Positions 47,649-64,000 of a stretch of DNA of 64,000 nucleotides are shown piece by piece. This DNA comes from Raineya sp. (GTDB lineage: Bacteria; Bacteroidota; Bacteroidia; Cytophagales; Thermonemataceae), in assembly GCA_025454915.1 (NCBI GenBank), contig JALONN010000010.1, positions 12,339 to 76,338 of the forward strand. Reading direction: 5' to 3'. Numbering within the stretch: position 1 is the stretch's first letter; each line of letters opens with the position of its first letter. Under the pieces are notes generated by a model. That model was not told the origin of the DNA, did not search any database, and was given only the letters and a program-made list of their open reading frames with translations. A program made the translations under genes and the position numbers.

Positions 47649-47766
47649 ATGAAAAAGCTATTTTATTGGTTCATTTATATATTAATGGTATTTCCTTTGC
47701 TTCTTTGTTGGGCAAGTGAAAAACAAACCAAAAATATTTTATAACATAGTTTTAAAGAAAAGTTTT
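47649..47766 (+). pseudogene. frameshifted remnant of an ancestral signal-peptide N-terminus of the ankyrin-like paralog family
   Basis: ATG 47649 encodes MKKLFYWFIYILMVFPLLLCWASEKQTKNIL*. gggcaagtgaaaaacaaaccaaaaa (47709-) matches gggcaagtgaaaaacaagaccaaaa of the paralog at 50265-. The homologous VKNK(P/T)K frame continues into the next gene. Confidence 0.45.
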
Positions 47767-50091
47767 ATGAAAAAAATCTGCTTGTTGTTAATTTCTATGC
47801 TTATATGTATGTGTGCATATACACAAGATGCCTTATTGGATAGTGCTCAGTTGGCAAAATTTAGCGAAAATAGCTTTCGTAGCTATTCTGGTCTTAAATT
47901 AATTGATAATTGCTGTCCTGCTGGAGTGACTGGGCTATACATGAGTAGTGGAGATCAGGGAGAATTAAAATTTGAAAAAATACATCTATTCACAAAATTA
48001 CAAGTATTACATATTTCAGGATATTATAAATTGGATATTTCTATACCCAAGGAGATAGGGTTGCTGAAAAACTTACAAGTATTGAAAATAGAAAATAATA
48101 AATCTATTTCTTTACCAAAAGAAATAGAAGCACTCCAAAACTTAAGATTACTGGATTTATCTCACAACAAACTCACTTCTTTACCTAACGGAATAGAAAC
48201 GTTGGGAAATTTGGAAATATTAAATCTATCTAATAACAAACTCACATCTCTGCCTAAAGAAATAGGAAAACTAAAAAAACTGAAAGTATTAAAATTATCT
48301 AATAATATGCTCAATTCCTTACCAGAAGAAATCATGGAATTAGAAAATTTAGAGGTATTAGAGTTAGGAAGAAATCTTTTTATAAAAGTACCAGAAGGCA
48401 TATGGAAGTTAAAGAAAATTAGGGTGATAGATTTATCTGGAAACAATAATCTTGCTTTGACAGACAACTTTGGTAAGCTAAAAACCCTCCAAGAACTATA
48501 TTTCTATGCAATTTATGACGACTTCGCAAATACCCCTCGTCCCATAAAGATACCCAAATCAATAGGTGATTTAGATAATTTGAAAATATTGGGTATCTCC
48601 CACAATAACTTGACCATAGTTCCTAAAGAAATATGGTCATTGAAGAATTTAAAAAAATTATATCTAAATGATAATAAACTTACTTCAATACCCAAAGAAA
48701 TAGCAAATTTAAAAAATTTAGAGAATTTAGATATAAGTAATAATAAAATTAAATTTTTACCCAAAGAAATAGAAACCTTGCCAAAAATAAAAGTAATAGA
48801 AACTGAGGGTAATTTATTTAAAAAGAAATTTCTCGCACATGACGAATTACGTTCAGCTCTTTATGATGGTAGATACAAAGATGCTCTTAAATATATCTCG
48901 CAAGGGGCGGATATACGGAAAGCTCGTGATACAATGGAAAGCGTGAGTGTGAACAGAATAGGGAAAACAGTACCCAATTATGTTAGAGAAAATTCTGGTT
49001 CAAGTCCAAGAGTGGGAGCATTTATTGGCTTCCTTTTGCCTTTTGTGGCAGCAGCTGAAGGGCTTTCCCAAAAAAGTGGTAGTAATAATAGTCCTGTAAA
49101 TTGTAAAATTGTGGATATAGCTCTCAACGATGCCTTAGGAGATACCATCAAAAGCCCTGAAAGGCTAAAAGTTATGGAATATGCTCTGCAAAAAGGAGCA
49201 ACTCCTGATGACCTTCGTTTATATTTGGCTGTAGAAAATAGAGATGTAGAGGCAACACGCTTACTGATGCAATACAAAGCTGAAGCAGATAGTGATTGGT
49301 TTTGGAAATGGACATTACCCACTTGTCAATGCTTAGACTCCACAGATAAAAATAAATATAATCCTGAACGTTTCGCTTCTTTTAAACAAGTAGTAGGAGT
49401 AGTTTTAAAAAACAAGCCTAAGTTAAGTGATGTAACCTTAGAACGCTTTTACACAAGTCCAGTTCTAACAAAGATGTTATTGGAGTTTTATACCCCAGAA
49501 GAACTCCACACCATACATAACCCTCTTTATACAGCTTGTGGATATTTTGACTTGGAGTTATTTAAAGAATATGAAGCATTGGGTTTTAGTAAATTTGATA
49601 TTTATAAGAATGAAAAGTTTTATAAATATCTTGGAGGCAATAGCAGATGGGCAAAAATTTATGAATACATCTATCCAAAAGGTTTTGATGTGAATTTTAA
49701 AATCCCTCCTTATAACCAATTCGAGCGTGAAAAAACATTTTTTTGTCGTATTATAGAGTATTCTACCATAGATGTAGATGTAATGAAAACACTTTTAACC
49801 ATGAAACCTGATTTCTGTGTACCTTGTAATCCTTTGGGGGTGCTACAAAAGAGAATAGCATGGTGTAAAAGACTTCTGGATTCAGAAAAAAATAGTAAAT
49901 ATTATAATGAAGACCTCAATCGTTATAAGAAATCACTTGCCATTGAGCCTCTTTTAGAAGAGTATTATAAGACTTTGCCAAAGGAGCAAAAGAAAATCAT
50001 TCTTAAAAGCCTAAAAAAATATCAGACCTCTGAATATGACCTTTCAGTTTTCCTAAAAAAGACTTATATTAAGAAACTCAAAAAACTATAA
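47767..50091 (+). CDS. secreted LRR + ankyrin-like fusion protein (paralog 1)
   Basis: Signal peptide MKKICLLLISMLICMCAYTQ, then about 12 LRRs (LRLLDLSHNKLTSLPNGIETLGNLEILNLSNNKLTSLPKEIGKLKKLKVL..). From HDELRSALYDGRYKDALKYISQGADIRK to the end it is homologous to 50096-51538. Ankyrin-like: YLAVENRDVEATRLLMQYKAEAD. Confidence 0.8.
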   Translation: MKKICLLLISMLICMCAYTQDALLDSAQLAKFSENSFRSYSGLKLIDNCCPAGVTGLYMSSGDQGELKFEKIHLFTKLQVLHISGYYKLDISIPKEIGLLKNLQVLKIENNKSISLPKEIEALQNLRLLDLSHNKLTSLPNGIETLGNLEILNLSNNKLTSLPKEIGKLKKLKVLKLSNNMLNSLPEEIMELENLEVLELGRNLFIKVPEGIWKLKKIRVIDLSGNNNLALTDNFGKLKTLQELYFYAIYDDFANTPRPIKIPKSIGDLDNLKILGISHNNLTIVPKEIWSLKNLKKLYLNDNKLTSIPKEIANLKNLENLDISNNKIKFLPKEIETLPKIKVIETEGNLFKKKFLAHDELRSALYDGRYKDALKYISQGADIRKARDTMESVSVNRIGKTVPNYVRENSGSSPRVGAFIGFLLPFVAAAEGLSQKSGSNNSPVNCKIVDIALNDALGDTIKSPERLKVMEYALQKGATPDDLRLYLAVENRDVEATRLLMQYKAEADSDWFWKWTLPTCQCLDSTDKNKYNPERFASFKQVVGVVLKNKPKLSDVTLERFYTSPVLTKMLLEFYTPEELHTIHNPLYTACGYFDLELFKEYEALGFSKFDIYKNEKFYKYLGGNSRWAKIYEYIYPKGFDVNFKIPPYNQFEREKTFFCRIIEYSTIDVDVMKTLLTMKPDFCVPCNPLGVLQKRIAWCKRLLDSEKNSKYYNEDLNRYKKSLAIEPLLEEYYKTLPKEQKKIILKSLKKYQTSEYDLSVFLKKTYIKKLKKL

Positions 50092-50165
50092 CTGTATGCT
50101 TCACATTCATCGAACTACTGAAAATAAAACGCAACAAGAACAAACCAATTTCTATGCTCAAAGCA
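48836..50165 (+). repeat. segmental tandem duplication, unit 1 (C-terminal 1.25 kb of paralog 1, a 4-nt spacer, and a copy of the giant-gene leader)
   Basis: Near-identical blocks at both ends when compared with 50303-51609, for example ctttatgatggtagatacaaagatgctcttaaatatatctcgcaagggg and tcagttttcctaaaaaagacttatat.aagaaactcaaaaaactataactgtatgcttcacattcat. Confidence 0.85.
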
Positions 50166-51538
50166 GGGAAAAACATGTTTTTTCTCTTGTTGTTCTTTCG
50201 ATAAGTATGAAAATAGCATTATGTGTTATTTTGCTATTCCCTTTTCTTGTATTAGGGCAAGTGAAAAACAAGACCAAAACACAAACAAGGCCCAAAGAAC
50301 CACCTCATGAGGAGCTACGTTCTGCCCTTTATGATGGTAGATACAAAGATGCTCTTAAATATATCTCGCAAGGGGCAGATATACGTAAAACAGATACCTT
50401 AGAAACACTAAGAGTTTCCAGAGAAAAGCAGGGAACATTGGATTATCCCGAAACTTCAAGTCCAAGAGCAGGAGCATTTATTGGCATCATTTTGCCTTTT
50501 GTGGCTGCTGCCGAAGGGCTTGCCCAAAAAAGTAGCAGTAGCAGTTCTTTTTCTGTTACCTGCAAAATTGTAGATATAGCTCTCAATGATGCCTTAGAAG
50601 ATACCATCAAAAGCCCTGAAAGATTAAAAATTATAGAGTACTGTTTGCAAAAAGGAGCAGACCCTGATGGGGCATACAAGTATATACCCTTATATTTGAG
50701 TATTACACAGAGAGATATAGAAATAACCAAACTACTTCTTCAATACAAAGCAAAACCTGATGTTTCTGCCCTTTGGACATATATTCTTAGAGGTTGTCCA
50801 TGTGTAGATACATCAGCTAATAGCCAAGATACTAAAAAAGTAGAATCTTTCAAAAATGTGGTGGGTTTACTTTTAGAAAAGAAACCCAAATTGGAGATGA
50901 GTACACTTGGGAAATTTTATAAAAAACCAGAATGGACAAAATGGCTCTTGAAGTATTATACCTTAGAAGAGTTAAATAAAATGAATAATCCCATTTACAC
51001 AGCTTGTTATTATGCTGATTTGAAATTATTTAAAGAATATGAGACTATGGGTTTTGGTAAATCTGATATTTATAAAAATGATAAACTTTATGATACTATT
51101 GCACTATATAATGCTAAGTTTTATGAATACATCTATCCAAAAGGTTTTGATGTGAATTATGAACATAAATTTGGTGATAAACTAACCTTTTTTTGTCGTG
51201 TTATTGAGTATTCTACAGATGTAGATTTTATAAGAATACTTTTAACTATGAAACCTGATTTTTGTGTACCTTGTAATCCTCTGGGATTGTTACAAGAAAA
51301 AATTATTCGATATAAAAATAATTTAGAAAAATCTAAAGATGACAAAGATTATAATAAATATCTTACTCGTTACAACAAATTACTTACTATTGAGCCTCTG
51401 TTAGAAGATTACTACAAGACTTTACCCAAAGAGCAAAAAAAAATCATTCTTGAAAGTCTAAAAAAATATAAAACCTATAGATATGAACTTTCAGTTTTCC
51501 TAAAAAAGACTTATATCAAGAAACTCAAAAAACTATAA
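50096..51538 (+). CDS. ankyrin-like protein (paralog 2). Annotated from the duplicated leader ATG; the alternative start at 50207 gives a classical signal peptide
   Basis: MLHIHRTTENKTQQEQTNFYAQ (copy of the giant-gene N-terminus), then SREKHVFSLVVLSIS, then MKIALCVILLFPFLVLGQVKNKTKTQ.., then EELRSALYDGRYKDALKYISQGADIRK. All of it is in one open frame. Confidence 0.75.
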   Translation: MLHIHRTTENKTQQEQTNFYAQSREKHVFSLVVLSISMKIALCVILLFPFLVLGQVKNKTKTQTRPKEPPHEELRSALYDGRYKDALKYISQGADIRKTDTLETLRVSREKQGTLDYPETSSPRAGAFIGIILPFVAAAEGLAQKSSSSSSFSVTCKIVDIALNDALEDTIKSPERLKIIEYCLQKGADPDGAYKYIPLYLSITQRDIEITKLLLQYKAKPDVSALWTYILRGCPCVDTSANSQDTKKVESFKNVVGLLLEKKPKLEMSTLGKFYKKPEWTKWLLKYYTLEELNKMNNPIYTACYYADLKLFKEYETMGFGKSDIYKNDKLYDTIALYNAKFYEYIYPKGFDVNYEHKFGDKLTFFCRVIEYSTDVDFIRILLTMKPDFCVPCNPLGLLQEKIIRYKNNLEKSKDDKDYNKYLTRYNKLLTIEPLLEDYYKTLPKEQKKIILESLKKYKTYRYELSVFLKKTYIKKLKKL

Positions 51539-51609
51539 CTGTATGCTTCACATTCATAGAACTACTGAAAATAAAACACAAGAACAAACCAATTTCTATG
51601 CCCAAAACA
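50303..51609 (+). repeat. segmental tandem duplication, unit 2
   Basis: See unit 1. The ends are nearly identical and the middle is more diverged (SPRVGAFIGFLLPFVAAAEGLSQKSGSNNSPVNCKIVDIALNDALGD versus SPRAGAFIGIILPFVAAAEGLAQKSSSSSSFSVTCKIVDIALNDALED). Confidence 0.85.
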
Positions 51610-54600
51610 TAGAAACTAAAAATACTGCTTTCCAAAATCAAAATAACTTTAAACCCTTAGGAGGTGACCCTCCTGATAAAGAAGCTATTGATGAAATGAT
51701 GAAAATCTTAAAAGAAGGGAAATTGACTAAAACAAAAGCAGAAGAAATTTTTGGAAAGTATGCAGAATTAAAAGAAGATGCTAAAGCAGAAAAAGATGAA
51801 TCTGGAAATCCAAATCCTTTATATATTAAAGGCGTAGATTTTGAGAAAGGCATATTTCCTGTTCCTCAACAAGAGCATTATAAGAATGAAAAAAAAGAAG
51901 ATGACAAAGAAGCATACGAAAAAGCTATGATTCACCATAAGAATCGTCTCAAATTATACAGAATATATGTTGGTTACGATTATTATGGTAAAGTTCTTCC
52001 TATTCTGCGTAGGATACTGAGGAAACAGATTTGGTTCAATGCTGTGAAATCTTGGGAAGCAATAGAGGCTTACCATATTCTAGATGATATGCAACCTGAA
52101 TACAGAGAGATTTTTGCTAACGAAGAGCCAATTCTTAACGATCGTATTTTTGGTGAACTTCCAATAGAATTTAGAACACAACAAAAATCTGCTCTACAAA
52201 AAGGAATTGCTTCCAAAGACCATGAGAGGCTTACAAAAGACCTTGAAAAAGCTATAAAGACAAACAATATTCTTCTTATTAAACTTTTGATAGCAATTGC
52301 TATAGAAGCTGGCTTAGAGAAAACCCTACCTGAAACCATCCAACAAAATGAAATTGTAAAGGGAGAAATAGCAAAGCTAGGTCGAAAAACAACAGGAGAG
52401 GCAGCCCAGGATATTCAACAAAAGAGAAAAGGCAGACATGCTATTTATAGACGCAACCTTGATAAAATTTATCAAAAAAACGCATTTAAAGATCCACGTG
52501 AAGCTCAAGAAGCTCCTGATCAGGTAGACAAAGATGCTGTGATAAGAGGGAAAGAAGCAGGAGGTATTGGTAAAATGACTTTGGGTTTTTTAGGAGAAAG
52601 ATTATCATTTTATGGAGATACGTTAAGTGGCTTGAATGCTGATGATGATCCGTCAATAGTATTAAAAAAAGCTTTAAAACTATCTGTTCAAATAGGTAAA
52701 GATTTCTTAGGTAAAACTAATACGCTTGAGAGTTTTGATTTAGAAAGATTTCAGGGAAGCATGGGAGGCTCACTGATGGGGCTGGAAGTAAGTAAAACGA
52801 ATAATCATCAAAAAGATACCCTTTTTAAAGATGATGAGAAAAAGGTGAGTGAAGAAGATAAACAGGACATGAAAAACTTAGAAAATGGAAATTTATCAGC
52901 ATGGATTGATTTTAGAAATGGAGAAATAAAAGTAATAGCAAATGCAATACCTTTCAAAAGTTTGAACTATTTGGCAGGAGATATGGCTTTTAAAGCTACT
53001 GAAGGAGCTTTTAATCAGATTTTCATGAAAATGAAATGGAACCCAAAAGTGAAAAAAGAAGAAGAAGTCGTTGCAGATATTGACTTGGTTGCAGGAGGTG
53101 TAGTGCTTGAGGGGATGCGAATGATTACAGATGAAGAAACCTATGGAATAGGTAAGATATTAGCCAAGGGATTACAAATTTCCATGAAACAAACCATTGG
53201 AATAGGGAAAGATCTTAAAGGATGGAAGAAACCAATTAACTTATTATTCAATACAATAGGAGCCATGAATAATATGATATTCCTTCTTATTAATTCTGCA
53301 ATGGTTACTTATCAGAGACTTGCCAATGTAGAAAACAAGCAAGATGAGTTTTCAATGGCTCAAGCCGATTTTACGAAAGCCTTGGGGGCTTCTCAGAATA
53401 ATTTCTTTGATTTAAAATATATGAAAGTAGCAGATATTGTGCTACAAAACTTTTATAGCACTTCTATGGGTAGAATAGGTGAAATAGGTTTGGGAGGTAA
53501 TAATATTAAGTTACAATCTGATGAAGCATCCTTTTCTCAGGATGAAAAAGCTACACTTTTTAAAAAGAAAAAAGAATTAAAGAAACTTCAAGGAAAGTTG
53601 GAAGAGGTATTAGATAGAAGGGCTAATATGAAGAGAAAAAAACAAGTAGAAAGATTTACAAAAAAACCCAAGTTAACAAAAAAACAGGAAGATATAGAGA
53701 AGCTAGAAGTTGAAATAGCCCAACTAGAGAAAAAACATAATCTCAAATTAGGATTTGAGACTAGCCATTTGGAACTTAAAGAGGCAGATATGATACAAGA
53801 AATGATGGCTAAAATGCTTAAAGAGAGCTTCAAAGAGAGTGGCATGGAAATGGAAGGTGTACAGGGCTTAGATGGTTTTGAGTTGCCTCAAGGTTTAAAA
53901 TTGGGAACATTTGTAAAGGATAAAAATAATACAGAAAAGAATACACAAATATCCCCAGAACAAATTAAAGACTTGAGTATTGATGTTCCCAAGATTGTAT
54001 TTTTAAATCCTGTTACAGCCTCAAAACTTACTTATACAGGTAAAAAAGACCTCATAGATAAACAAACCAATCAGCCTATCAAAGAAAAAGGGAAAACGAA
54101 GAAGGAAGACACCATGCAAGTGATAGGTACTGATGTTGTATTCACAAAACTTGAATTGGGGTTGAAAATAGATTTTGCAGATTATGATAAATCAAAACCT
54201 CCGAAAGAAGAGGATAGTCTTATTGAAAATATGGAAATCAAGGGGTTGAAAGCAGAAACAGCCAGTTTTGGAACTTTTCAGTTCAAACTGCCAAACCCAT
54301 TTGATCCTATTAAAAAGGTGAGAAAGGAGGGAACAAAGGATGAAACAAAGGATGAAACAAATTTTTATGATGTATTAGACTTCAAAGATCAAGTTACTTT
54401 TCATGATTTTGATTTTAGTTTTCTTGAAAAAGCTGAGGACCCAATTACTTTAAAAATCGGAAAAATTGAACAAACCAAAAAAACACCTACTAATGTGAAC
54501 GGTATGCAATACAATTATAGGTATAAAAAGACCGAAAAAAATGAGAAAGGTGAAGATGTAGAAACAAATATTAAAGTAAATGGGAGCTTTAGTATGTTAA

Positions 54601-57587
54601 ATAAAATTGATCCTAAAGAAAAAAAACTCAATCCTGAAGCAAAAGGTGAGCCTAGCCTATCAGGGTTAACTTTTACAAGAGAAAACAAAAATGACGGAAA
54701 AAAAGACATTGATAAAATATTACTGGGTAAGTTATTTTTTCAGAATAACAAATTAGAAAACTTCTATTTTAAACAAGGAGATCTAGAGGTAAAAGGGAAT
54801 AATGCAATAATGGAGCATATAGATTTAGAAGGTTTAGTATTTGAAATGCAAACTGAATACGACTCTAAAGATAAGAAAAATGTAATCAGTAGCAGTGAAT
54901 ATTTACGATCTCTTCAAAACCTTTTTATAAATAGGATTCATTTTGGAAGTAACTTTATAATTACGAAAGCAGGTAAAGAGTATAAATTAGGTAGTGGAAG
55001 TATAGACAAGCTGAATGCAAAAAACTTGGAGTTGGATTTTCAGGGTAAAGATAAATTTGAAATGTTTAAAAAGGGAGAGATATCTTTTGCTCATTTTAAT
55101 TTGAGTAATCTTGCTTTGGATAGTTTGAGTAAATTGAATTATTTTAATCTCAAGGATTTTAGTATAGAAAGGGTTAAAGATGCAAAAGAGGATGTTATCA
55201 AATTTAAGGGTGAGCAAAGTATCGGATATCACAAAAACAATAATACATCTTCTTTGAATGTAGGGGCTTATAGCAAATTGTCAGGAATATATGATAAAAA
55301 GGAAATTATGACCAAAGATGAAAACGAGAAATGGATAGGTACTGGAACGTATACATACTCTTTCAAGACAGATTTAGATGATTTCGGGAGCAATATCGCA
55401 CTATCAGATGATAAAAAAGATGTCAAAACTGAAATAGGTGCCCCTAAAATAAGTATCAAGACAGATTTTGAAACATACGCAGACATAGATTTTGGAGATT
55501 ATATATCAATGAAAAGCCTGAATTACGAATCCAAAGATGGGATGTATATTAGAGGGTCTAATTATGATAATGGTTTGATAAGATTAGAAAACCCATCAGC
55601 AAAATTGAAATTAGTAAAAGATAAAAAAACAGATAAATTCACAAACATAGAAATAGAACAATTCCATCTCAAGAAAATAGTAGCCTCCAAACTGGACTTT
55701 GGACAATATCATAAAGTTACAGAAGAAGATAAAAAAAGTGACCTTGAGAACAAAACAGAGAAATATAAAAATTATTCCATAGGAAGTATTGATAAACGAG
55801 CGGGGTATGAAGATGCAACATTTGCATTAAAAAATGGAAAAACGGCTAGTCTTACAGATGTGTATTTATCAGGGAATTTTAGGTTGTCAGATGGAGCTCT
55901 CGCTCTAAAAGGTGGAGCTAAAGAAGTGAATTTAGAAGAATTAAAAGCAGTTCTTTCACAAAGTGCTGTATTTTTAAATCCTTATTTGAAAGCAGATAAT
56001 CTCACTTTTAGTAGAGAATATAATGGAGATATGGATGCAAAAGTAAATAATTTTAGGACTGGCTTGAGGGATAATGAAATAACAATGCAACCTAATAATA
56101 TGGGAATGATTAAATTGGAACAATCAGCAAATAATAAAGATACTCCTGTTTTACAATCACATACACTTACTTATAATTATAATAAAAAAGAAGATAAAAC
56201 AGAGGTCATCATAAAAGACCCAAAATTGGGAGCGATTGTACTTGAAGGGCATTTTCGTGGATACAATGGAACTTCAGGTATAGCTCTCCAAAAAATGATT
56301 ATGCAAGGAGAAATGAAGGGAGATTTCAAACTTACAGATACTCCAACAGAAACGATTTTAGATGGAAAAGATTTTATATTCCAAATTCCAGAAGCTTATT
56401 TTGTAGCCAATAGCATGTCAGACCTTTTCAGCCTTACCAAACCAGAAGAAAAGAAAGAGCAAAATAATAGCAATACTAATTTCACTACTGAAGAAGATAA
56501 TAGCCGATTCAAACAACTTGAAAGGCGAGAATATGCAAAGCTTGATACTAATCCTGATTTGGTAAAAAATTATGTTAAGAATCAAGCTCGTGAGAGGCTC
56601 CATAATGAAAAAAAACAAGAAGAGTTTAATAAATTATCACAAGATTTTGCATTTATGAATCTATTTACAGATAGTAGTATTGTCTTTAATGCTTTTGGAG
56701 AGGAATTTATTTTACAACCAGAACCTATTTATGCAACAAGCCTCAGAGCACGCCGAGCGGATGCCCACATAGATGTATTTTCGTTTTTAAAATCTATTGC
56801 AGATTTAACAGCTAATAGACTAATAGAACTTTACAGCGTTTCATTTCAAATTCCTGCAAATAATGAAGCAAAAGGATTTATACAAATACTGGAATATATA
56901 AGCAAGTGGGTTGCTAAAAATGGTTCTTCGGCTATTTTACAAAGTTTTGAAAACTTTGTGGAAGAAAGGTGTGGTAATATTTTTAAAGAAGTAGGAGATA
57001 AAAAATACATTCAGATGTCTGAGTTTGCTGCATTGTGTAGTATGTTAGGGGATATGCAAGAAGATTTGATAGAAAGAATTATGGAAGTACCCATCATTGA
57101 TTTTGGAAAAGGGATATATGATTTTTTTTCTGAACCAAGTTCAGAACCTGTAGACCCTGAACAATTAATACCTTCTTTCGTTGAAATGGTTGTTTCAATG
57201 ATGCAACCACGATTTACATTACATGCTAAAGGTTCAGGATTCAAAGACTACAATAAAGGTATGCTAAAACCATATATGGAAAGTGATTTCACAAAGCAAG
57301 CTTTTTCAAGTGAAGGATTTCTAACATTTCAGTTAGCAAATAATAGAAATCCTCTAATTAGTCTTCAAAATTGGAACTTTGAAGGTTTTAGTTTGCCAAT
57401 TTCTAAAGGAAAAGGTAAATTATCTACCAAATCAATGGGTATATCACAATTAACATTTTTTAAACAGAATGGACTAAAGAAATCAGGATTAGTAAACTTA
57501 GATGCAAAAAATGTGTACTTGAAAGGGCTATACATGATAATAAATAAGACCAAAGATACTGATAAAGAAAAGAAAACTGGAAAATAA
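51543..57587 (+). CDS. giant (2014-aa) K/E/D/N-rich orphan protein with no signal peptide; candidate CIS cargo/effector or accessory component
   Basis: A single uninterrupted 6-kb ORF in AT-rich DNA. The polar N-terminus is MLHIHRTTENKTQEQTNFYAQNIETKN. I see only two Cys (ERCGNIF, AALCSML). No HExxH, P-loop or other catalytic motif recognised. Confidence 0.8.
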   Translation: MLHIHRTTENKTQEQTNFYAQNIETKNTAFQNQNNFKPLGGDPPDKEAIDEMMKILKEGKLTKTKAEEIFGKYAELKEDAKAEKDESGNPNPLYIKGVDFEKGIFPVPQQEHYKNEKKEDDKEAYEKAMIHHKNRLKLYRIYVGYDYYGKVLPILRRILRKQIWFNAVKSWEAIEAYHILDDMQPEYREIFANEEPILNDRIFGELPIEFRTQQKSALQKGIASKDHERLTKDLEKAIKTNNILLIKLLIAIAIEAGLEKTLPETIQQNEIVKGEIAKLGRKTTGEAAQDIQQKRKGRHAIYRRNLDKIYQKNAFKDPREAQEAPDQVDKDAVIRGKEAGGIGKMTLGFLGERLSFYGDTLSGLNADDDPSIVLKKALKLSVQIGKDFLGKTNTLESFDLERFQGSMGGSLMGLEVSKTNNHQKDTLFKDDEKKVSEEDKQDMKNLENGNLSAWIDFRNGEIKVIANAIPFKSLNYLAGDMAFKATEGAFNQIFMKMKWNPKVKKEEEVVADIDLVAGGVVLEGMRMITDEETYGIGKILAKGLQISMKQTIGIGKDLKGWKKPINLLFNTIGAMNNMIFLLINSAMVTYQRLANVENKQDEFSMAQADFTKALGASQNNFFDLKYMKVADIVLQNFYSTSMGRIGEIGLGGNNIKLQSDEASFSQDEKATLFKKKKELKKLQGKLEEVLDRRANMKRKKQVERFTKKPKLTKKQEDIEKLEVEIAQLEKKHNLKLGFETSHLELKEADMIQEMMAKMLKESFKESGMEMEGVQGLDGFELPQGLKLGTFVKDKNNTEKNTQISPEQIKDLSIDVPKIVFLNPVTASKLTYTGKKDLIDKQTNQPIKEKGKTKKEDTMQVIGTDVVFTKLELGLKIDFADYDKSKPPKEEDSLIENMEIKGLKAETASFGTFQFKLPNPFDPIKKVRKEGTKDETKDETNFYDVLDFKDQVTFHDFDFSFLEKAEDPITLKIGKIEQTKKTPTNVNGMQYNYRYKKTEKNEKGEDVETNIKVNGSFSMLNKIDPKEKKLNPEAKGEPSLSGLTFTRENKNDGKKDIDKILLGKLFFQNNKLENFYFKQGDLEVKGNNAIMEHIDLEGLVFEMQTEYDSKDKKNVISSSEYLRSLQNLFINRIHFGSNFIITKAGKEYKLGSGSIDKLNAKNLELDFQGKDKFEMFKKGEISFAHFNLSNLALDSLSKLNYFNLKDFSIERVKDAKEDVIKFKGEQSIGYHKNNNTSSLNVGAYSKLSGIYDKKEIMTKDENEKWIGTGTYTYSFKTDLDDFGSNIALSDDKKDVKTEIGAPKISIKTDFETYADIDFGDYISMKSLNYESKDGMYIRGSNYDNGLIRLENPSAKLKLVKDKKTDKFTNIEIEQFHLKKIVASKLDFGQYHKVTEEDKKSDLENKTEKYKNYSIGSIDKRAGYEDATFALKNGKTASLTDVYLSGNFRLSDGALALKGGAKEVNLEELKAVLSQSAVFLNPYLKADNLTFSREYNGDMDAKVNNFRTGLRDNEITMQPNNMGMIKLEQSANNKDTPVLQSHTLTYNYNKKEDKTEVIIKDPKLGAIVLEGHFRGYNGTSGIALQKMIMQGEMKGDFKLTDTPTETILDGKDFIFQIPEAYFVANSMSDLFSLTKPEEKKEQNNSNTNFTTEEDNSRFKQLERREYAKLDTNPDLVKNYVKNQARERLHNEKKQEEFNKLSQDFAFMNLFTDSSIVFNAFGEEFILQPEPIYATSLRARRADAHIDVFSFLKSIADLTANRLIELYSVSFQIPANNEAKGFIQILEYISKWVAKNGSSAILQSFENFVEERCGNIFKEVGDKKYIQMSEFAALCSMLGDMQEDLIERIMEVPIIDFGKGIYDFFSEPSSEPVDPEQLIPSFVEMVVSMMQPRFTLHAKGSGFKDYNKGMLKPYMESDFTKQAFSSEGFLTFQLANNRNPLISLQNWNFEGFSLPISKGKGKLSTKSMGISQLTFFKQNGLKKSGLVNLDAKNVYLKGLYMIINKTKDTDKEKKTGK

Positions 57588-57600
57588 ACAAATAGTCTAT

Positions 57601-57634
57601 ATTAGTGAGGTTAGTTTAAACTAACCTCACTAAT
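57601..57634. terminator. perfect 34-nt palindrome; bidirectional terminator between the giant gene and the AAA+ gene
   Basis: attagtgaggttagttt|aaactaacctcactaat. Confidence 0.8.
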
Positions 57635-57650
57635 ATTATATTCCTTATTT

Positions 57651-59003
57651 CTACATAATAATATCCTTCCACATAGGAAGGTTTAATTCTTTACACATAG
57701 CTGTAATATCATGGTATCCTTTTCCTTGAACAATATAGAAGTTTCTTAAAGTCCTAAAAAATTTCTCCCTGTCAAAAACATAAGCATTCTCTGAGCTATC
57801 TTCTAAAGCTTGAACTTTACAAAAACGGGCAAAACTCTTGATCCAAGCTCCATTCATATCTTTGAGTTTATCTGCCACATATTCAATAGGTACATTGTTG
57901 AAAAAAAACTCTTCAAAAGCCTTCGCCCATATTTCATAACGAATAGTGGGGTAAGGCTGACTAAACTCAAATCTCAACTGAAAACGTCTCTTGAAAGCCT
58001 CATCCAAATTGTCTTTTTTGTTGGTACAAAGAAATAAAATTCCATCAAAATCCTCCATTCTTTGAAGTAGATAGGCTATTTCCTGATTTCCATATCTATC
58101 ATTGGCAGATTTGTTGTCTGTTCTTTTACCCAGCAAAGCATCTCCTTCATCAAAAAAGAGAATCCAGTCTTTATTTTGAGCCAAATCGAAGACATATTTA
58201 AGGTTTTTCTCAGTTTCACCCACATATTTGGAAACAATCTGAGAGAGGTCAATTCTGTACACATCTCTGCCTACTTCTTTTCCCAAAATACCTACACTGA
58301 CAGTTTTACCAGTACCAGATTCACCCCAAAACAAAGCTTTGAAACCCTTTGAACCTTTGTACTGAGGATTATTATTGAGTTCAGGATAATGTTTCATCCA
58401 AGCTTTTACATCCATCAAACAATCTCTTACAGAAGGATTTAAGACCAAATCATCCCAAGTTTCGTCTGTTTGGTATAAACTGGCAGGAAATGAGGAACTG
58501 TAAGTATAATAATACTTTCTATTCATCACCACTCTAAAATAAAATTCAGGAGAAATTTCTAAAGCACAATCCTCCATTGCAGGATTTTTAGAAAAAGGCT
58601 TTAGAATGTTGTTTTTAAACAAAGGACTCTCTTTTTGTAGAAAGTTATTAATAATCTGAATTCTTTCTAAATGTTGCTTTCCTGCAAGTAAAAACAAAGC
58701 TGTACGAACAGTAGGAGAAAAAGTGCCATCTTCTTGATTAATGCCTCCATGTAAAGAAGGTTCAGGACTACTTTTTTCTATACTTTTGAATCTATCAAAA
58801 ATAGAGGGATTAAAAGCATAAGCCAAAGCTAAAAGAGCTATTATAATTTCTTCTGGTTCTGAAATACCTTCTTTTTGCCATTCTTCAAGGTCTTCAATAT
58901 AAATAGATTGTGGAATTTCTACATAATTAATAATCTCCTCTAATTTATCAACTTTACTTTTTAAAAGTTCCTCAAGCCACAACAACTGTTTTATTATATT
59001 CAT
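57651..59003 (-). CDS. AAA+ ATPase of the Afp15/Pvc15 (contractile-injection-system-associated) type
   Basis: Single AAA module at the C-terminus: FWGESGTGKT (Walker A), SKYVGETEKNLKYVFDLA, ILFFDEGDALLGKRTDNKSANDRYGNQEIAYLLQRMEDFDGILFLCTN (Walker B and sensor region), FKRRF. The unique N-terminal domain is about 220 aa. Confidence 0.75.
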   Translation of the reverse strand: MNIIKQLLWLEELLKSKVDKLEEIINYVEIPQSIYIEDLEEWQKEGISEPEEIIIALLALAYAFNPSIFDRFKSIEKSSPEPSLHGGINQEDGTFSPTVRTALFLLAGKQHLERIQIINNFLQKESPLFKNNILKPFSKNPAMEDCALEISPEFYFRVVMNRKYYYTYSSSFPASLYQTDETWDDLVLNPSVRDCLMDVKAWMKHYPELNNNPQYKGSKGFKALFWGESGTGKTVSVGILGKEVGRDVYRIDLSQIVSKYVGETEKNLKYVFDLAQNKDWILFFDEGDALLGKRTDNKSANDRYGNQEIAYLLQRMEDFDGILFLCTNKKDNLDEAFKRRFQLRFEFSQPYPTIRYEIWAKAFEEFFFNNVPIEYVADKLKDMNGAWIKSFARFCKVQALEDSSENAYVFDREKFFRTLRNFYIVQGKGYHDITAMCKELNLPMWKDIIM

Positions 59004-59083
59004 AAAATCTCTTATTTTTGGTAAAAATACTTAAACATTGGAATATTTTTTGAAAAATCTCTACTACTTACAAATGAGAAGCC

Positions 59084-60892
59084 ATGAATAGTGACCCTAC
59101 TAAAATTTATGATGATAAAATGTATGCATTTCCAGAGCAGGATAGTTCTAAACAACAACAGGAACGATTTGGCAACAGATGGGATGATAGGTTTCAAAGT
59201 AGATGGGGTGTTCAGTTTACAGAAGCCCAAGAAACAACTGTAAATTCTATTCCCTCTTATGGAATTACCAATAAAAAAACAACTGTAATCATAGGAGCTA
59301 AAAAAAATAAAAAAGAAACCCTTGAAGCAGACACTGAAATAAAGATTATATCCAATCAGGGTGAAAGCTATGAAGTAGAAGCTACCATTGGGGAAAAGAA
59401 AATTATTGGTTTAGTATTAAAAAGTGATATAGATACTTTTGCTAATAAAATGGCAGATTTGCCTGAAGAGCAAAAGAAAAAAATAGATATGGATACGACT
59501 ACTATGATGCCACTTATAGAATATCCTAGCTATGAGTTTAGTAATCATAATTATTTTATCCAAATTAATGGAACACCTGATGTTTTTAGAAGTCTTTTCA
59601 AAAATGTTATTGGTAGCTATTTAATCAGATATAATTTAAATCAAGCTAATAGAACTATTAAAATAGCAATTCCCTTTACTGGTCTTCCTACGGATTTTAT
59701 CAAAGATGAAAGTATCAAAAAGAAATACAACAACAATACTTTTGCTTTCAGATTTACAAGATTAGAAGATAGAAATGGAAGAGAAATGTTTTTGATAGAA
59801 GAATTAGGGCAAGTAAAAGCACCTGCACCAATGGATATTCAGAATAAAGAGTTAAAATTTCATAAATATGGCTTTACTTTTTACGAACCATCTGCTGGAG
59901 AGGTACAAAATGCTAATGATTTAAAAACTGAAATAGAGAGTAATGGAGTAACAGAGAGAGCTAAAGAGCTTTATCCGAAGGCTTTCTTAACACTTTCTGC
60001 TCAAGAAAAAGAGGTTATTATCAGGGCTGTTGAAAAAATGCCCACAAATACTTTAGAAACCATTAAAAATGTAGTTTTCAATAAGAAAAATTATCAAATT
60101 GAAGATGGAGCAGTAAAACCTATGACAGCTGCATTTTATAACAGCCAAAATCATACTGTAACAGTTATAAAAGATATTATCGAACAAAGAGCTAATACTT
60201 TTGGTGATAATGAAACTGAAGGATTTTCTAATAGTGCAGAGTTTACCATTATACATGAATTGGGGCATGCTGTCGACTTTGCCCCTTATAAAGAAAAACA
60301 CACAGTTTTAGATGCAAAAAGAAGTGTATATGATGCAGAAATAAAACTGTATAATCAGGCTATTGATACTCAAAAGCAAGCTTATGAAACATTTTTAAAT
60401 GAACGAACAGCTCTTATAAAAACATATAAAAATCAAATTACTTTTACCAATATACAAGAAAATGAAAAAGGGCAGATTACGAATTTTCGTTATTCTGGTA
60501 CACCACCTCACTTTGAGGCATTTCAGAGTGGCTTGAAAAAAATAGAAAAAAAATATGATGCTGTTAAAGCTACTAGTGCAAGTGCAAAAACACGATTTGA
60601 ATCTGTTAAAACAGATTATGAAAATACGAGAACAGCAGCTTCCCAAAGTAGAAATTTATCAGGTTATGGACAAGTATATAATACAACTACTCAAAAATGG
60701 GATGTAGTAGATGATAAAACAGCTTTTGATGAAGCTGTAGAAAAAGACAGCCCAAGAACTACAATCTATGCAAATACCAATGACAAAGAATCTTTTGCAG
60801 AGGCATTTGCTTTGTATGTAACAGAACCCGAAACTTTGAAAACCCTTAGCCCCAATGTGTATGCTTATTTTCTTCAGAAGTTTCCTCGTTAG
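59084..60892 (+). CDS. zincin metalloprotease-like protein of the anthrax lethal factor / PPEP (M34, ATLF-like) type with a large insertion; no signal peptide
   Basis: AEFTIIHELGHAVDF (HExxH at 60254-60268) and KESFAEAFALYVTEPETLKTLSPNVYAYFLQKF (60788-), which resembles the LF/PPEP 'E-F-F-A-E-A-F' third-ligand helix. I count about 173 residues between the two motifs. Confidence 0.6.
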   Translation: MNSDPTKIYDDKMYAFPEQDSSKQQQERFGNRWDDRFQSRWGVQFTEAQETTVNSIPSYGITNKKTTVIIGAKKNKKETLEADTEIKIISNQGESYEVEATIGEKKIIGLVLKSDIDTFANKMADLPEEQKKKIDMDTTTMMPLIEYPSYEFSNHNYFIQINGTPDVFRSLFKNVIGSYLIRYNLNQANRTIKIAIPFTGLPTDFIKDESIKKKYNNNTFAFRFTRLEDRNGREMFLIEELGQVKAPAPMDIQNKELKFHKYGFTFYEPSAGEVQNANDLKTEIESNGVTERAKELYPKAFLTLSAQEKEVIIRAVEKMPTNTLETIKNVVFNKKNYQIEDGAVKPMTAAFYNSQNHTVTVIKDIIEQRANTFGDNETEGFSNSAEFTIIHELGHAVDFAPYKEKHTVLDAKRSVYDAEIKLYNQAIDTQKQAYETFLNERTALIKTYKNQITFTNIQENEKGQITNFRYSGTPPHFEAFQSGLKKIEKKYDAVKATSASAKTRFESVKTDYENTRTAASQSRNLSGYGQVYNTTTQKWDVVDDKTAFDEAVEKDSPRTTIYANTNDKESFAEAFALYVTEPETLKTLSPNVYAYFLQKFPR

Positions 60893-62219
60893 TATATTGT
60901 TTTTATATATCGGGATAACTCATGCCCAACTCATAGCTGTTGCCAAAAAAAAAGATAAATATGGTGTAATAGACTCCACAGGGAAATGGATTGTAGAACC
61001 TCGTAACAAAGCACTCAAAAACTGTTTAGAAGGAGAATATATGATGCGATTAGTTTATATGCCTCTAGCCTCTGTGATAGAAACACATTCTGATGAAATT
61101 CCAGAAGAAAAATTTAGTGAAACATTACTTTTCGATATTTTAAGATTTAAAAATAAAAACGTAAAATATATCAAATTAGAAGATGGTACATTTTTTAGTA
61201 ATATCAGAAATGGATATTTTTTAAGAGATATAGAGGATAGTCTTTATAAAAAAATTTATATAACCACTTTTAATATTCAAGATAAGCCTTTGCATCAAAA
61301 AGTACCTCAAAAAAAAACTTTTAATTATTATCTCCTTCCAAAAGAAGAACTTATTACAGTTGGTCAAACTAAAAATTGGGGACTTGGATTTGGAGCAAAT
61401 ATGTCATGGTTTTTTGATATTCCCTTCTACAATGATAACAATGAGTTTTTGTGGGAGAGAAGGGATTATTTTTCTCATAGACCTTATTTGTATGGAAAAG
61501 TAGATGACTCTATCCAAAATCATTTAAACTCAATCAGGGACACTTTTCGTATCAAAAAATGGGGGGCAATAGATACGAATCATAAAGTTATTATCTCGCC
61601 TCAATATTCATATCCTTTTGAGTTTTCTCAAGGAAAAGCTTTGATAGGAGTGAAAAAAGGTAAAAACTATCAATTCTTTTTTATCAACAAACAAAATAAA
61701 CGCTTACATAAGAAAAACTTCGCTTTTGCTCGAAGCTTTCAGGAGAATTTAGCTTTGTGTAAAGATGAAAAATCATGGTTCTTTGTAGATACGAGTATGC
61801 AAAAAGTGTTTTCTATGCCTCCAGAAACGATGTATACAGACTCATTTTTTGAAGGAATGGCTGTGATAGCTTTTGAACGTCAGGGAAGAGTTTTGTATGG
61901 TTATATAGATAAAACAGGAAAAGTCGTCATTAATCCTCAATATAAACAAGTAGGGCATTTTTCAGAAGGTTTGGCTGTGGCAATGGATAATTCAGGCAAA
62001 TATGGTTATATCAATAAACAAGGTATTTGGGTAATATCACCTCAATATACTTTAACATCATTTTTAGATAAAAATTCTGAAACACTTAATTTTCATCAAG
62101 GTAGAGTTGTTTTTTATGATGATAAAACTCAAAAATATGGTTTTTTAGACAAGACTGGAAATGTAGTTCTTTCTGCTCAATTTGATGAACTTCAACCTTT
62201 TTATAGTATTAAGAAATAG
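60855..62219 (+). CDS. secreted WG-repeat (KWG) protein
   Basis: Signal peptide. Repeats: KYGVIDSTGKWIVEPRNK, KWGAIDTNHKVIISPQY, YGYIDKTGKVVINPQYKQVGHFSEGLAVA, KYGYINKQGIWVISPQY, KYGFLDKTGNVVLSAQF. Confidence 0.8.
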   Translation: MCMLIFFRSFLVSILFLYIGITHAQLIAVAKKKDKYGVIDSTGKWIVEPRNKALKNCLEGEYMMRLVYMPLASVIETHSDEIPEEKFSETLLFDILRFKNKNVKYIKLEDGTFFSNIRNGYFLRDIEDSLYKKIYITTFNIQDKPLHQKVPQKKTFNYYLLPKEELITVGQTKNWGLGFGANMSWFFDIPFYNDNNEFLWERRDYFSHRPYLYGKVDDSIQNHLNSIRDTFRIKKWGAIDTNHKVIISPQYSYPFEFSQGKALIGVKKGKNYQFFFINKQNKRLHKKNFAFARSFQENLALCKDEKSWFFVDTSMQKVFSMPPETMYTDSFFEGMAVIAFERQGRVLYGYIDKTGKVVINPQYKQVGHFSEGLAVAMDNSGKYGYINKQGIWVISPQYTLTSFLDKNSETLNFHQGRVVFYDDKTQKYGFLDKTGNVVLSAQFDELQPFYSIKK

Positions 62220-62306
62220 TAAGATATAAGGTGTTTCTTAAATTTTGTAAATTAAGGAAGTATGATGAAGCTGTTTGCTGTCTCTGATTTGTCCCATTTC
62301 ATAAAA

Positions 62307-62336
62307 AAACCTTTTAATCGTTAAATTAAAAGGTTT
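62307..62336. terminator. bidirectional terminator between the WG-repeat gene and the convergent fibre-like gene
   Basis: aaaccttttaat-cgttaa-attaaaaggttt. Confidence 0.75.
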
Positions 62337-62475
62337 AGTGGAGAATATCGGAGTCGGATATAAGGGATTTTTGAAAACAATGTTTTGAATCTGAAATATT
62401 ATGAATGTTTTTGATAAAAGTAAAAAACATTAAAACACATCTTAAAAGAATCTCATTTCGGTAATATTTCAGTAA

Positions 62476-63519
62476 TTAAAATTCATCTACTTTCCAATAA
62501 ATAATCTTGGTATCTACAAATTGCCCTGAAAGTAAAAACACTCTTATAGATGCATCTGTATTGGTTAGTTTTTTCGTATCAGATGTTAAATTTGATGGCA
62601 ATGTTTTTTGAAATACATTTGTCAAATCATCGGTAGGGTTTTCAATAGTTACTTCTCCACTAGATGGAGCTAACCTAATAATCATATTGATTTTTTGCCC
62701 GATGAATGTATTGCTAAACTTATAAGTTCTAGTACCTATTGCTGTTAAGAATGGATTAGGGCTTACTAAGTTTTCATGCCTTCCCAATAAATCAATTGTA
62801 GAGTTTGCTGTTGGGCTGTAATTGACATTATTAGATTTTACCTGATTATAAGGAGCAATAAAGTTTTCAGAAGAAAGTAAATTTGCTGTAGTTTGGGCGT
62901 TTGTTGATTTAATTCCAGTTGTATCAAATGAAATCATCAAGGAATTATCAAAATAAAACCCTATCGTGTTTTTCCTTAAAAGAATATCAATCTTTTTATT
63001 CGTTACAGTATTGCCTTCTTGCTCAAAATTCTGATCTATACTTATTTTAACATAAGGGTATTGACCATCATAACCATTTTCAATGGTGGCTTTATTTGTC
63101 CTGATAGATGCCGATAAATACTTTTTAATCTCAAACTCTTTTTTGGAACTTGTTTCTCCAAAAAGAATACTGGCTAGCGATTGCTGTAATTGTCCCTCAG
63201 TAGTAGATTCAGAACCATTTTTACTTACCTTTCTTGATACTTCCGCATTTTGGGTACTTTCTAGGTACACCCTGCCTCTTTTCGTATATCCTGCTGCCAC
63301 ATTATCGGCATTCAATGTTATGATTGAATCCGTTTTATTAACATGAGTATTTAGAACTGGTGGATTAAGATCAGTGCTTTTATCATTGCCAAGTAAAAAT
63401 ACTCCATTTATTATTTGAACAAGAGCGGTTCCAACTCTTGTGGCTGTATTTTCTCCATCTTCGATTGCATCTCTGATTTCTTCCAACAGTGGAAGAATAT
63501 CATTATATTCTGGCTTCAT
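62476..63519 (-). CDS. putative tail-fibre / distal baseplate protein of a phage-tail-like apparatus
   Basis: 347 aa, S/T/N-rich and beta-looking. Its start codon is 1 nt downstream of the upstream stop, so the two genes appear translationally coupled. No family motif recognised; the call rests on position and composition. Confidence 0.35.
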   Translation of the reverse strand: MKPEYNDILPLLEEIRDAIEDGENTATRVGTALVQIINGVFLLGNDKSTDLNPPVLNTHVNKTDSIITLNADNVAAGYTKRGRVYLESTQNAEVSRKVSKNGSESTTEGQLQQSLASILFGETSSKKEFEIKKYLSASIRTNKATIENGYDGQYPYVKISIDQNFEQEGNTVTNKKIDILLRKNTIGFYFDNSLMISFDTTGIKSTNAQTTANLLSSENFIAPYNQVKSNNVNYSPTANSTIDLLGRHENLVSPNPFLTAIGTRTYKFSNTFIGQKINMIIRLAPSSGEVTIENPTDDLTNVFQKTLPSNLTSDTKKLTNTDASIRVFLLSGQFVDTKIIYWKVDEF

Positions 63520-63520
63520 A

Positions 63521-64000
63521 TTATATACCTCCTATTATGTTTGCTTCAATGTTATCACTTGATAAAATTGGAAGGCTTGGCTCTTCCAAAACTAAGTTGC
63601 CATTATATTTATAAATTTTAAACTCCCAAGAATCCCCAAGAACATAAGAACCCGCATTGATTTTAAGAGAAATCTCGTTGGTATTGACTTGTTGAGTTAC
63701 ATTATAATTGCCAAAAAAAGCGTTGTTTCTGATTAGCTGATACTCTGTTGAAGAGGAGAAGATAATTTTCCAACTTACTGTATTTTGAGAACCTTCAAGA
63801 ATATCTACTTCCCAGTCCAATACCTTATTCGTAAGAGGTTTTGCGTATGGAATAGGATAAATTTTAATTAAATCGGAATAATCCACACCTTCAGCAGTTT
63901 CAATAGCTTGGTAAATATCTCCAATAGCTATTTTACCCTTTACCTTTACCTTTACCTTATTTTTATTTGAACCTAATGCTACTATGTTATTGATAGCATT
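63521..64000 (-). CDS. C-terminal part of a baseplate-wedge-like (gpJ/gp6-type) protein; gene continues right of the window
   Basis: The reverse strand is open from base 64000: NAINNIVALGSNKNKVKVKVKGKIAIGDIYQAIETAEGVDYSDLIKIYPIPY... The track shows only the part from an internal GTG (63886). '..IYQAIETAEGVDY..' and the ending '..EEPSLPILSSDNIEANIIGGI' resemble baseplate J-like C-termini (weak). Confidence 0.35.
   Translation of the reverse strand, partial: NAINNIVALGSNKNKVKVKVKGKIAIGDIYQAIETAEGVDYSDLIKIYPIPYAKPLTNKVLDWEVDILEGSQNTVSWKIIFSSSTEYQLIRNNAFFGNYNVTQQVNTNEISLKINAGSYVLGDSWEFKIYKYNGNLVLEEPSLPILSSDNIEANIIGGI

Follow-up and report, generated by a model that had tools for sequence, protein, structure and literature searches.

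Introduction

The cargo proteins of extracellular contractile injection systems (eCIS) have been described as consisting of a system-specific disordered N-terminal domain, an optional DUF4157 domain and a variable C-terminal domain (preprint 10.64898/2026.05.27.728243), and cargo loading was found to depend on an ATPase, as published for Alg15 and Pvc15 (preprint 10.64898/2026.05.27.728243; PMC9054023, PMC11495950). Work is under way to engineer eCIS into devices for protein delivery, for which the choice and loading of the cargo are the current bottleneck. Here we analyzed a stretch of DNA of 64,000 nt (the window; GC content ~32%) whose proteins are recorded at NCBI as "MAG: Raineya sp." (Bacteroidota), MAG standing for metagenome-assembled genome. 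Its segment from 47.7 to 62.2 kb encodes an AAA+ ATPase of the eCIS type, and we lean, if only slightly, towards the view that this segment is a satellite island of a loader ATPase and cargo genes that would serve in trans an eCIS encoded elsewhere. The island would be centred on the ATPase, as unfoldase and loader, and flanked by two putative cargo cassettes. One of them would comprise a leader-bearing protein with a zincin motif (the zincin) and its Sec-exported partner with WG repeats, and the other a giant protein of 2014 aa with two Sec-exported, ankyrin (ANK)-like partners, one of which (LRR-X) is fused to leucine-rich repeats (LRR) and the other of which (X) is not.

The closest described modules are Alg15 with Cgo1 and Cgo2 of AlgoCIS (Algoriphagus) and Pvc15 with Pdp1 and Pnf of the Photorhabdus virulence cassette (PVC). 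The island resembles them in its classic AAA+ ATPase, which is homologous over the full length, and in its cytoplasmic neighbours with polar leaders and variable C-terminal domains. As in those modules, one leader is common to otherwise unrelated candidate cargos; a giant cargo also has precedent there, and members of the family of the giant carry DUF4157. Unlike these modules, the island lies apart from the structural operon, which is on another contig, and the genome seems to have at least three ATPase paralogs, of which an eCIS locus contains one and satellite islands the other two. The candidate cargos of the island also differ in lacking DUF4157 and in being paired, each of them, with a Sec-exported repeat protein.

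Two further comparisons are instructive. The orphan vgrG/hcp islands of type VI secretion systems (T6SS) likewise keep effector, accessory and putative immunity genes away from a main cluster, and variable cassettes are swapped at a conserved chromosomal site in both, but our island has no spike or tube gene, its anchor is a putative loader ATPase and not VgrG, Hcp or PAAR, and it is of the eCIS type and not of T6SS i-iii. Polymorphic toxin systems with PVC-type trafficking (Zhang et al. 2012, PMC3482391) share with it a conserved N-terminal trafficking region, interchangeable C-terminal domains and adjacent LRR and ANK repeat proteins of known immunity classes (Imm-LRR and Imm-Ank), whereas the PVC-metallopeptidase (DUF4157) module is missing from the proteins of the window, and toxicity and immunity are putative here.

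An earlier note on this DNA had taken the segment for the cargo and ATPase arm of an injection system whose structural operon would be the tail-like genes on its right. What it observed was largely accurate and its interpretation half right: the open reading frames (ORFs) are all present with the strands and sizes it gave, and its description of the ATPase and of the protease and the giant as eCIS-like holds, whereas the tail-like genes turned out to belong to a prophage.

An eCIS-type ATPase apart from any eCIS operon

The ATPase has a single classic AAA domain (Pfam AAA, PF00004; E 1.9e-24) with intact Walker A (GESGTGKT at residue 227) and Walker B (ILFFDE at residue 281) motifs, and an N-terminal domain (N-domain) of ~195 aa that is specific to its family. 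The nearest solved structures are the p97/Cdc48 unfoldases. Identity to ATPases within eCIS loci was 38-52% over the full length, with alignments that begin at residues 1-5 and so include the N-domain; against those of the eCIS loci L016, L017 and L018 (L numbers denote the loci compared) it was 41-44% across residues ~1-400. The neighbourhoods of homologs tell the same story. In Algoriphagus persicinus the gene order is CIS_TMP, ATPase and eCIS_core protein, in Bacterium 336/3 CIS_TMP lies close to the ATPase, and on a JGI contig the ATPase is accompanied by eCIS_core, LysM and Pvc16_N. We then counted markers, taken from real eCIS loci and extended by one round of profile building, in 80 homolog loci of GTDB species representatives, and found a CIS_TMP homolog in 51, eCIS_core in 57 and the large baseplate protein in 38 of them. 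By full-length homology, the ATPase is of the eCIS (Afp15/Cis15/Alg15) type, as the earlier note had proposed.

The gene sits outside any eCIS operon: it is flanked by cargo-like and housekeeping genes and by a prophage, and a Pfam search for the CIS-type tape measure (PF19268) beside it gave no match. A genuine eCIS locus is, to judge from its gene content, borne by contig Ga0392395_0000004 of the same metagenome. There, a 44%-identical paralog of the ATPase (P0015, locus L018) is encoded divergently from an operon that comprises two gp19-type tube genes, DUF5908, CIS_tube, a 602-aa VgrG-like spike, PAAR, gp25, a 1256-aa baseplate protein and Pvc16_N. A third paralog is encoded in locus L013. 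All three ATPases (MCU0438933, MCU0439297 and MCU0440269) are recorded as "MAG: Raineya sp." in one accession series, and the contigs agree in GC content and tetranucleotide usage, which is compatible with one organism but cannot discriminate. These data suggest that one MAG probably holds an eCIS locus and two satellite ATPase islands, the latter on contigs 0000027 and 0000207.

Close relatives of the island fall into two arrangements. In L013 (same MAG, ATPase 80% identical) and L014 (70%), a gene for an X protein with a signal peptide, a giant gene and the ATPase gene are co-directional; they are flanked by housekeeping genes, and tail genes are absent within 10 kb. In L073 (86%) and L015 (66%), the ATPase gene is divergent from that of an LRR protein with a signal peptide, which is followed by a gene for a 548-aa or a 535-aa protein, respectively; L073 is flanked by a type III restriction-modification system, and L015 by McrBC, nSTAND and other defence genes. 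The window unites both arrangements, and its ATPase gene is inverted relative to L013 and L014. A further locus, L074, shares the zincin (82% identical) and contains the ATPase gene (clipped by the contig end), the zincin and WG genes, a gene for a 163-aa protein and one for a 740-aa PKD_6 protein, without phage genes. The last two are orthologous (59% and 74%) to the flanks of the X-giant-ATPase genes in L014, the shared flanks being a ~160-aa lipoprotein-like gene and the PKD_6 gene (L014:1-3973 vs. L074:3025-7190). Because X-giant-ATPase in L014 and WG-zincin-ATPase in L074 have the same flanks, cassettes of putative cargo have been exchanged at one chromosomal site.

More distant homologs show a comparable pattern. 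In L076, L078 and L079 an orphan ATPase gene is divergent from a gene for a protein of 730-860 aa, which has eCIS_core in L076 and L078; a signal-peptide or lipoprotein gene comes next in L076 and L079, and no structural genes were found in the 12-16 kb of each locus. In MAGs of Cytophagales and Chitinophagales, orphan ATPases are repeatedly paired with a DUF4157 protein, and the gene after the pair encodes a lipoprotein or a protein with a signal peptide.

The two satellite ATPases of the MAG (window 57651-59003 vs. L013:10001-11353) are 96% identical in the AAA domain and 59% in the N-domain, a contrast that points to a homogenised motor or else to a diversified specificity domain. Across relatives, the AAA domain is 82-88% identical, whereas the cargo genes diverge. 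The N-domains of classic AAA+ unfoldases usually choose substrates or adaptors, so the divergent N-domains are compatible with paralog-specific recognition of cargo.

A leader-bearing zincin as candidate cargo

The zincin, encoded divergently from the ATPase, has HELGH at residue 391 and ESFAEAF downstream of it, both conserved, and weak matches to ATLF, M90 and DUF4344. It had been called a lethal factor (LF)-like protease; ATLF (PF07737) scored 19.8 bits, below the cut-off of 27.4, and the match to LF in the PDB had E=0.12. The AlphaFold2 (AF2) model, built from an alignment of three sequences, had a predicted local distance difference test score (pLDDT) of 49.5 and is too poor for any use of the fold. 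Neither the zincin nor the giant has a signal peptide, as was noted earlier for both, and the N-terminus of each is polar. We regard the zincin as a predicted gluzincin-like metalloprotease and a candidate cargo.

The N-terminus of the zincin is a leader of ~50 aa (59084-59248; MNSDPTKIYDDKMYAFPE...RWDDRF). Over residues 1-55, the zincin shares 67% identity with the N-terminus of the 548-aa protein of L073 (L073_548; L073:173-1819) and 56% with that of the 535-aa protein of L015 (L015_535; L015:7342-8949), and the remainder of those proteins is unrelated to the zincin. Each is encoded beside an orthologous ATPase; neither has HExxH or a Pfam match, and both have a glycine-zipper-like hydrophobic segment (LGFCLLGVGITLASGGVGALIG...). 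The segment recalls glycine-zipper membrane-disrupting toxins. Among all loci compared, a profile hidden Markov model (HMM) of the leader matched just the zincin, L073_548 and L015_535, with no match to giants or to proteins beside the eCIS-locus ATPase. The converse also occurs: P0126 (L075, another MAG), a homolog 33% identical to the zincin, has a quite different N-terminus. By these comparisons, the N-terminus of the zincin is a modular leader, and it looks functional, as a putative loading signal. A shared leader on unrelated C-terminal domains fits the published architecture of eCIS cargo. By their locus tags (AAF734_...), P0126 and the giant-family fragments P0148 and P0149 belong to one NCBI MAG, and the pairing of zincin and giant may recur outside Raineya.

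A rare family of giant proteins

The giant had no Pfam match, even at E=10. In L013 and L014, the gene immediately upstream of that for the ATPase encodes a homolog of 2091 and 2000 aa, respectively, collinear with the giant and ~25% identical to it. The adjacency of giant and ATPase is based on only three loci. Word-based homolog searches found almost nothing for the giant or the zincin, and the giant family emerged only when residues 101-1000 were searched exhaustively with HMMER against 1.84 billion representatives, which returned 22 proteins. Nearly all family members have 1.6-2.4 thousand residues, and the named ones are "hypothetical protein" entries of Cytophagales-like organisms, e.g., Thermonemataceae and Microscilla. 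Five of the 22 representatives have an N-terminal eCIS_core/DUF4157 domain (best E 1.1e-32), with HExxH at residues ~180-440 and the usual "EQEAD" stretch before it, and this ties the giant family to the architecture of eCIS cargo. We therefore place the giant, by its relatives, as a candidate eCIS cargo of a rare, unannotated family.

The position of the giant gene upstream of the ATPase gene in L013 and L014 raised the possibility that it encodes a tape measure. A CIS_TMP profile built from 52 homologs, which gave 445 bits on the positive control, gave <4 bits on the giant family, and relatives of the giant carry DUF4157; the tape-measure assignment was rejected. An AF2 model of the giant core (residues 150-780; pLDDT 64.8, predicted template modelling score 0.60) consists of a helical N-domain and long beta-hairpins, and Foldseek found no match with E below 3 for it in the PDB.

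Sec-exported repeat proteins and the copied leader

Three proteins of the island are predicted to be exported, a feature that the earlier note did not mention. The probable true start of LRR-X is Met18 at 47767, which begins a Sec signal peptide (MKKICLLLISMLICMCAYTQ). LRRs occupy residues ~70-370 (Pfam LRR_14/LRR_8, E~1e-35), and the weakly ANK-like X domain, at residues ~375-791, is 61% identical (410 aa) to its 480-aa paralog, X; stand-alone LRR proteins with signal peptides adjoin the orthologous ATPases in L073 and L015. X probably starts at Met38 (50207), again with a Sec signal peptide (MKIALCVILLFPFLVLGQ), and the orthologs L013_X399 and L014_X394 begin at the signal peptide, equivalent to Met38 of the X ORF. 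The eukaryote-like repeats seen earlier are thus strong for LRR but below the cut-off for ANK, since Ank_2 scored 19.5 bits against 27.3 in a single stretch of the X domain (residues 177-223) and the orthologs gave faint matches only. The WG protein, with Pfam WG_beta_rep at E 3.8e-35, is beta-propeller-like and has a Sec signal peptide. Its gene, which is co-directional with that of the zincin and not convergent as the earlier note had it, also lies downstream of the zincin gene in the prophage-free L074, and the two are predicted to be co-transcribed.

Sec signal peptides are found as well in the relatives of LRR-X, X and WG in L013, L014, L015 and L073. Because these proteins are Sec-exported, whereas lumen cargo must be cytoplasmic, LRR-X, X and WG are unlikely to be injected. 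Each type is paired with a cytoplasmic protein, namely X with the giant, LRR with the 535- or 548-aa protein, and WG with the zincin. In view of the Imm-LRR and Imm-Ank classes mentioned above, LRR-X, X and WG may be immunity or accessory proteins rather than injected effectors.

The earlier note had also pointed to a leader copied between two members of the island and to a possible loading code based on leaders. The copy is real: the first 22 codons of the X ORF copy the 5' end of the giant gene (MLHIHRTTENKTQ...), and the 45-nt leader pattern has exactly two sites, where none is expected by chance. It belongs to a longer patch of near-identical DNA (copy 1, 50048-50161; copy 2, 51495-51608) that spans the 3' end of the X domain, the stop codon, the CTGT spacer and the 22 codons. 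Windows of 60 nt within the patch are 98% and 87% identical, and the paralogs elsewhere 55-80%. This mosaic of identity fits an origin by duplication and a gene-conversion tract, which best explains the copied leader. Two more patches of 90-95% nucleotide identity (48863-48922 / 50331-50390 and 49100-49160 / 50559-50618) also resemble gene-conversion tracts. Since the copy in the X gene lies upstream of the probable start at the signal peptide, it is probably untranslated or a harmless extension. A modular leader does exist, that of the zincin, but the copied leader is not it.

Proposed loading in trans and its alternatives

How might such an island work? By analogy with Pvc15 and Alg15, the ATPase would bind the disordered N-terminal leaders of cytoplasmic proteins, unfold the proteins that bear them and feed them into the tube of the eCIS whose structural genes are on Ga0392395_0000004. 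The zincin and the giant would be loaded in this way, and the Sec-exported repeat proteins would stay outside the particle.

Several observations weigh against loading in trans. None of the eCIS markers from L018 or L016 has a homolog inside the window, and no structural eCIS gene was found near the closest ATPase homologs, within 10 kb on each side in L013-L015 and within 3-5 kb in L073 and L074, so that any tie of the island to a particle would be purely in trans. Some orphan ATPase loci lie among defence genes (McrBC and nSTAND in L015, type III restriction-modification in L073). Both candidate cargos of the window lack DUF4157 (PF13699), and the N-terminus of the giant fails to match the leader profile of the zincin. 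Likeness of the N-domain tracks the type of leader poorly, the N-domain of L015 being only 36% identical despite the same leader class. The readable part of the L018 eCIS locus, whose stretch ends early, has no sheath gene. The assignment of island and eCIS locus to the same genome leans on the accession series and composition, and bins can be chimeric; all sequences compared are MAGs or metagenomes.

A bolder form of the proposal is that several trans-acting loader ATPase paralogs, each with its own island, would serve distinct leader classes and so make up a loading code spread around the chromosome, with the giants as one class and the Sec proteins as a matching immunity set. We regard this as possible but would put it forward only tentatively. 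If it were true, the matching Sec-exported immunity set would imply that the particle targets bacteria. If the island does load in trans, natural matched pairs of ATPase N-domains and leaders would be available for studies of recognition, catalogues of effectors limited to in-operon genes would miss cargo, and the list of candidate cargos would gain an uncharacterised family of giants from the islands.

The principal alternative, unlikely in our judgment but serious, is a stand-alone toxin/immunity or conflict module centred on the ATPase, without a contractile particle, in which the AAA+ protein would, for instance, serve the giant and the leader-bearing toxins by activating, disaggregating or exporting them, or would act as in an IetA-plus-protease-type defence. 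Six loci of close homologs (66-86% identical in the five fully read) lack structural genes within flanks of 3-10 kb on each side, some of them adjoin defence genes, the divergent partner in the window is a protease, and the PADLOC IetA models score 109 bits on the ATPase. The same models, however, give 107-128 bits on four ATPases of bona fide eCIS loci, and the NCBIfam IetA model gives 97 bits against a cut-off of 510, with a match confined to the AAA domain. The partner, moreover, is not a constant protease, as L073_548 and L015_535 lack HExxH, and the ATPase and giant families are both linked to eCIS markers. The variant with an IetAS-type defence system was rejected, because the IetA score reflects a shared AAA-domain signal that is equal or higher in eCIS-locus ATPases and is below the cut-off, and also because the partners are the zincin or non-protease proteins and not the serine protease IetS.

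It is improbable that the island is a decaying, now functionless remnant of a former eCIS locus. Its detachment from structural genes, the inversion of the ATPase relative to L013 and L014 and the duplication scar at the 5' end of the X gene could be read in this way. Every ORF is intact, however, including that of 2014 aa, the AAA domain has been kept at the levels of identity given above while the cargo diverged, and the module recurs in several lineages, with differing cassettes and a conserved site.

The neighbouring prophage

The tail-like minus-strand genes that the earlier note saw to the right of the island do adjoin it, though only ~1.5 kb of them is in the window. The proteins of the window could be placed exactly on JGI contig Ga0392395_0000027, which shows the genes past the window edge. 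Baseplate_J, gp25-like and gpV-like genes lie there on the minus strand, followed, divergently, by an Amidase_2 endolysin, small membrane proteins, fibre-like ORFs, a single-stranded DNA-binding protein and Sipho_Gp157. IMG/VR lists the region as provirus IMGVR_UViG_3300037462_000908 of 48,309 bp, whose first base is in the stop codon of the J gene. In addition to a UvrD-type helicase, methyltransferases, ParB-like proteins and a protein resembling phosphoadenosine phosphosulfate (PAPS) reductase, it encodes a large terminase (PHROGs E-value 7e-19), portal (1e-68), head protease, major head protein (2e-33) and connector proteins, a 512-aa sheath (1e-28), 156-aa tube (1e-15), 734-aa tape measure (8e-63) and gpD- and gpX-like proteins, a cI/LexA-type repressor and a tyrosine integrase (2e-29).

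A close relative without the phage supplied the empty site. L074, a Logan contig without phage genes, is 84% identical in DNA to window 57842-62230; homology then ends, 11 nt past the WG stop codon, and L074 continues into the genes for the 163-aa and PKD_6 proteins. Because L074 lacks the prophage and homology stops at 62230, the left prophage junction is placed at ~62231, and the 347-aa protein encoded beyond it, probably a fibre, is phage-borne. The zincin and WG genes, in turn, are grouped with the ATPase gene and not with the phage because all three are kept together in L074. The IMG/VR boundary omits the 347-aa fibre-like gene and a terminator (62231-63520); the empty-site comparison puts both inside the prophage. 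The genes right of 62231 are the baseplate and fibre end of a complete temperate myovirus prophage of at least 49.6 kb (~50 kb), and not of an eCIS. The myovirus inserted just downstream of the WG gene; it is unrelated to the island, which it adjoins by accident.

With this, the view that the island is the distal cargo and ATPase arm of an injection system formed by the adjacent genes, very improbable by now, is refuted as far as gene content goes. Although Baseplate_J, gp25-like and gpV-like genes are the immediate neighbours on the right, with an eCIS-type ATPase within 4 kb, they belong to a complete phage that has genes for capsid, portal, terminase, lysis, replication, repressor and integrase, and phages lack Cis15-type ATPases (PMC12210884). 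The earlier note had itself held that conservation of the segment in relatives lacking an injection system would speak against this view, and locally that is what was found, since the X-giant-ATPase trio of L013 and L014 and the ATPase-zincin-WG genes of L074 have no tail genes within flanks of 4-10 kb. Equally remote is the idea that the island genes are phage morons, or lysogenic-conversion cargo at the prophage end, for although they abut the fibre and baseplate genes and the ATPase matches phrog_3757 of PHROGs (E 1e-52), the homology with L074 runs through ATPase, zincin and WG in the absence of the prophage, paralogous and orthologous modules occur in non-phage settings, and a scan of viral contigs with the ATPase found no phage relative. 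An Afp15-type ATPase beside baseplate genes is, then, insufficient to call an eCIS.

The prophage itself resembles P2/Mu-like myoviruses in its gpV-gpW(gp25)-gpJ baseplate module, its sheath, tube, tape-measure and gpD/gpX-like genes, and its HK97-type head genes, terminase, cI/LexA-like repressor and tyrosine integrase. It differs from them in that replication and head modules separate the baseplate module from the sheath and tube genes, and in the inversion of the tape-measure gene within the tail operon. The 734-aa tape-measure gene (L012:12772-14976) is opposite in strand to the preceding sheath and tube genes and to the gpD/gpX-like genes that follow, which is unusual. Also in the prophage, a lone 166-aa minus-strand ORF amid replication genes (L005:14917-15417) resembles tail-tube or tube-initiator proteins by eye.

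Layout of the window

The features of the island and of the prophage end are listed in Table 1. LRR-X, X and giant genes are separated, as had been noted, by the same 4-nt spacer at both junctions (TAA-CTGT-ATG), and the two terminator-like elements reported earlier, one between the convergent giant and ATPase genes and one near the tail-like genes, were found again.

Table 1. Features of the island and of the adjoining prophage end.
Feature	Size	Coordinates	Strand	Remarks
LRR-X fusion	791 aa	47716-50091	+	strong LRR matches
X paralog	480 aa	50096-51538	+	paralog of the C-terminal half of LRR-X
Giant	2014 aa	51543-57587	+	no Pfam match
Terminator-like palindrome	17 bp, perfect	57599-57636	.	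predicted bidirectional terminator-like element between the convergent giant and ATPase genes
AAA ATPase	450 aa	57651-59003	-	eCIS-type (Afp15/Cis15/Alg15-like) by homology
Zincin	602 aa	59084-60892	+	HELGH motif
WG-repeat protein		60855-62219	+	Pfam WG_beta_rep
Terminator hairpin		62303-62335	-	fold followed by U7; within the prophage end
Fibre-like protein	347 aa	62476-63519	-	prophage
Baseplate_J	last 121 codons (protein of 550 aa)	63521-64000	-	gene runs past the window edge; prophage

The earlier note had recognised neither a tRNA nor an integrase at the borders of the island. There is indeed no tRNA in the window, but an integrase, that of the prophage, marks a border ~48 kb to the right, beyond the window. 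The genes on the left side of the island, up to 46.1 kb, are ordinary chromosomal ones and encode MnmA, patatin, ComEA-like, SpoIIE/tetratricopeptide repeat, thioredoxin, M14 peptidase and photolyase proteins. About 10 kb left of the island, at 36340-37590 of the window, a gene encodes a protein of 416 aa whose C-terminal domain is putAbiC (abortive infection).

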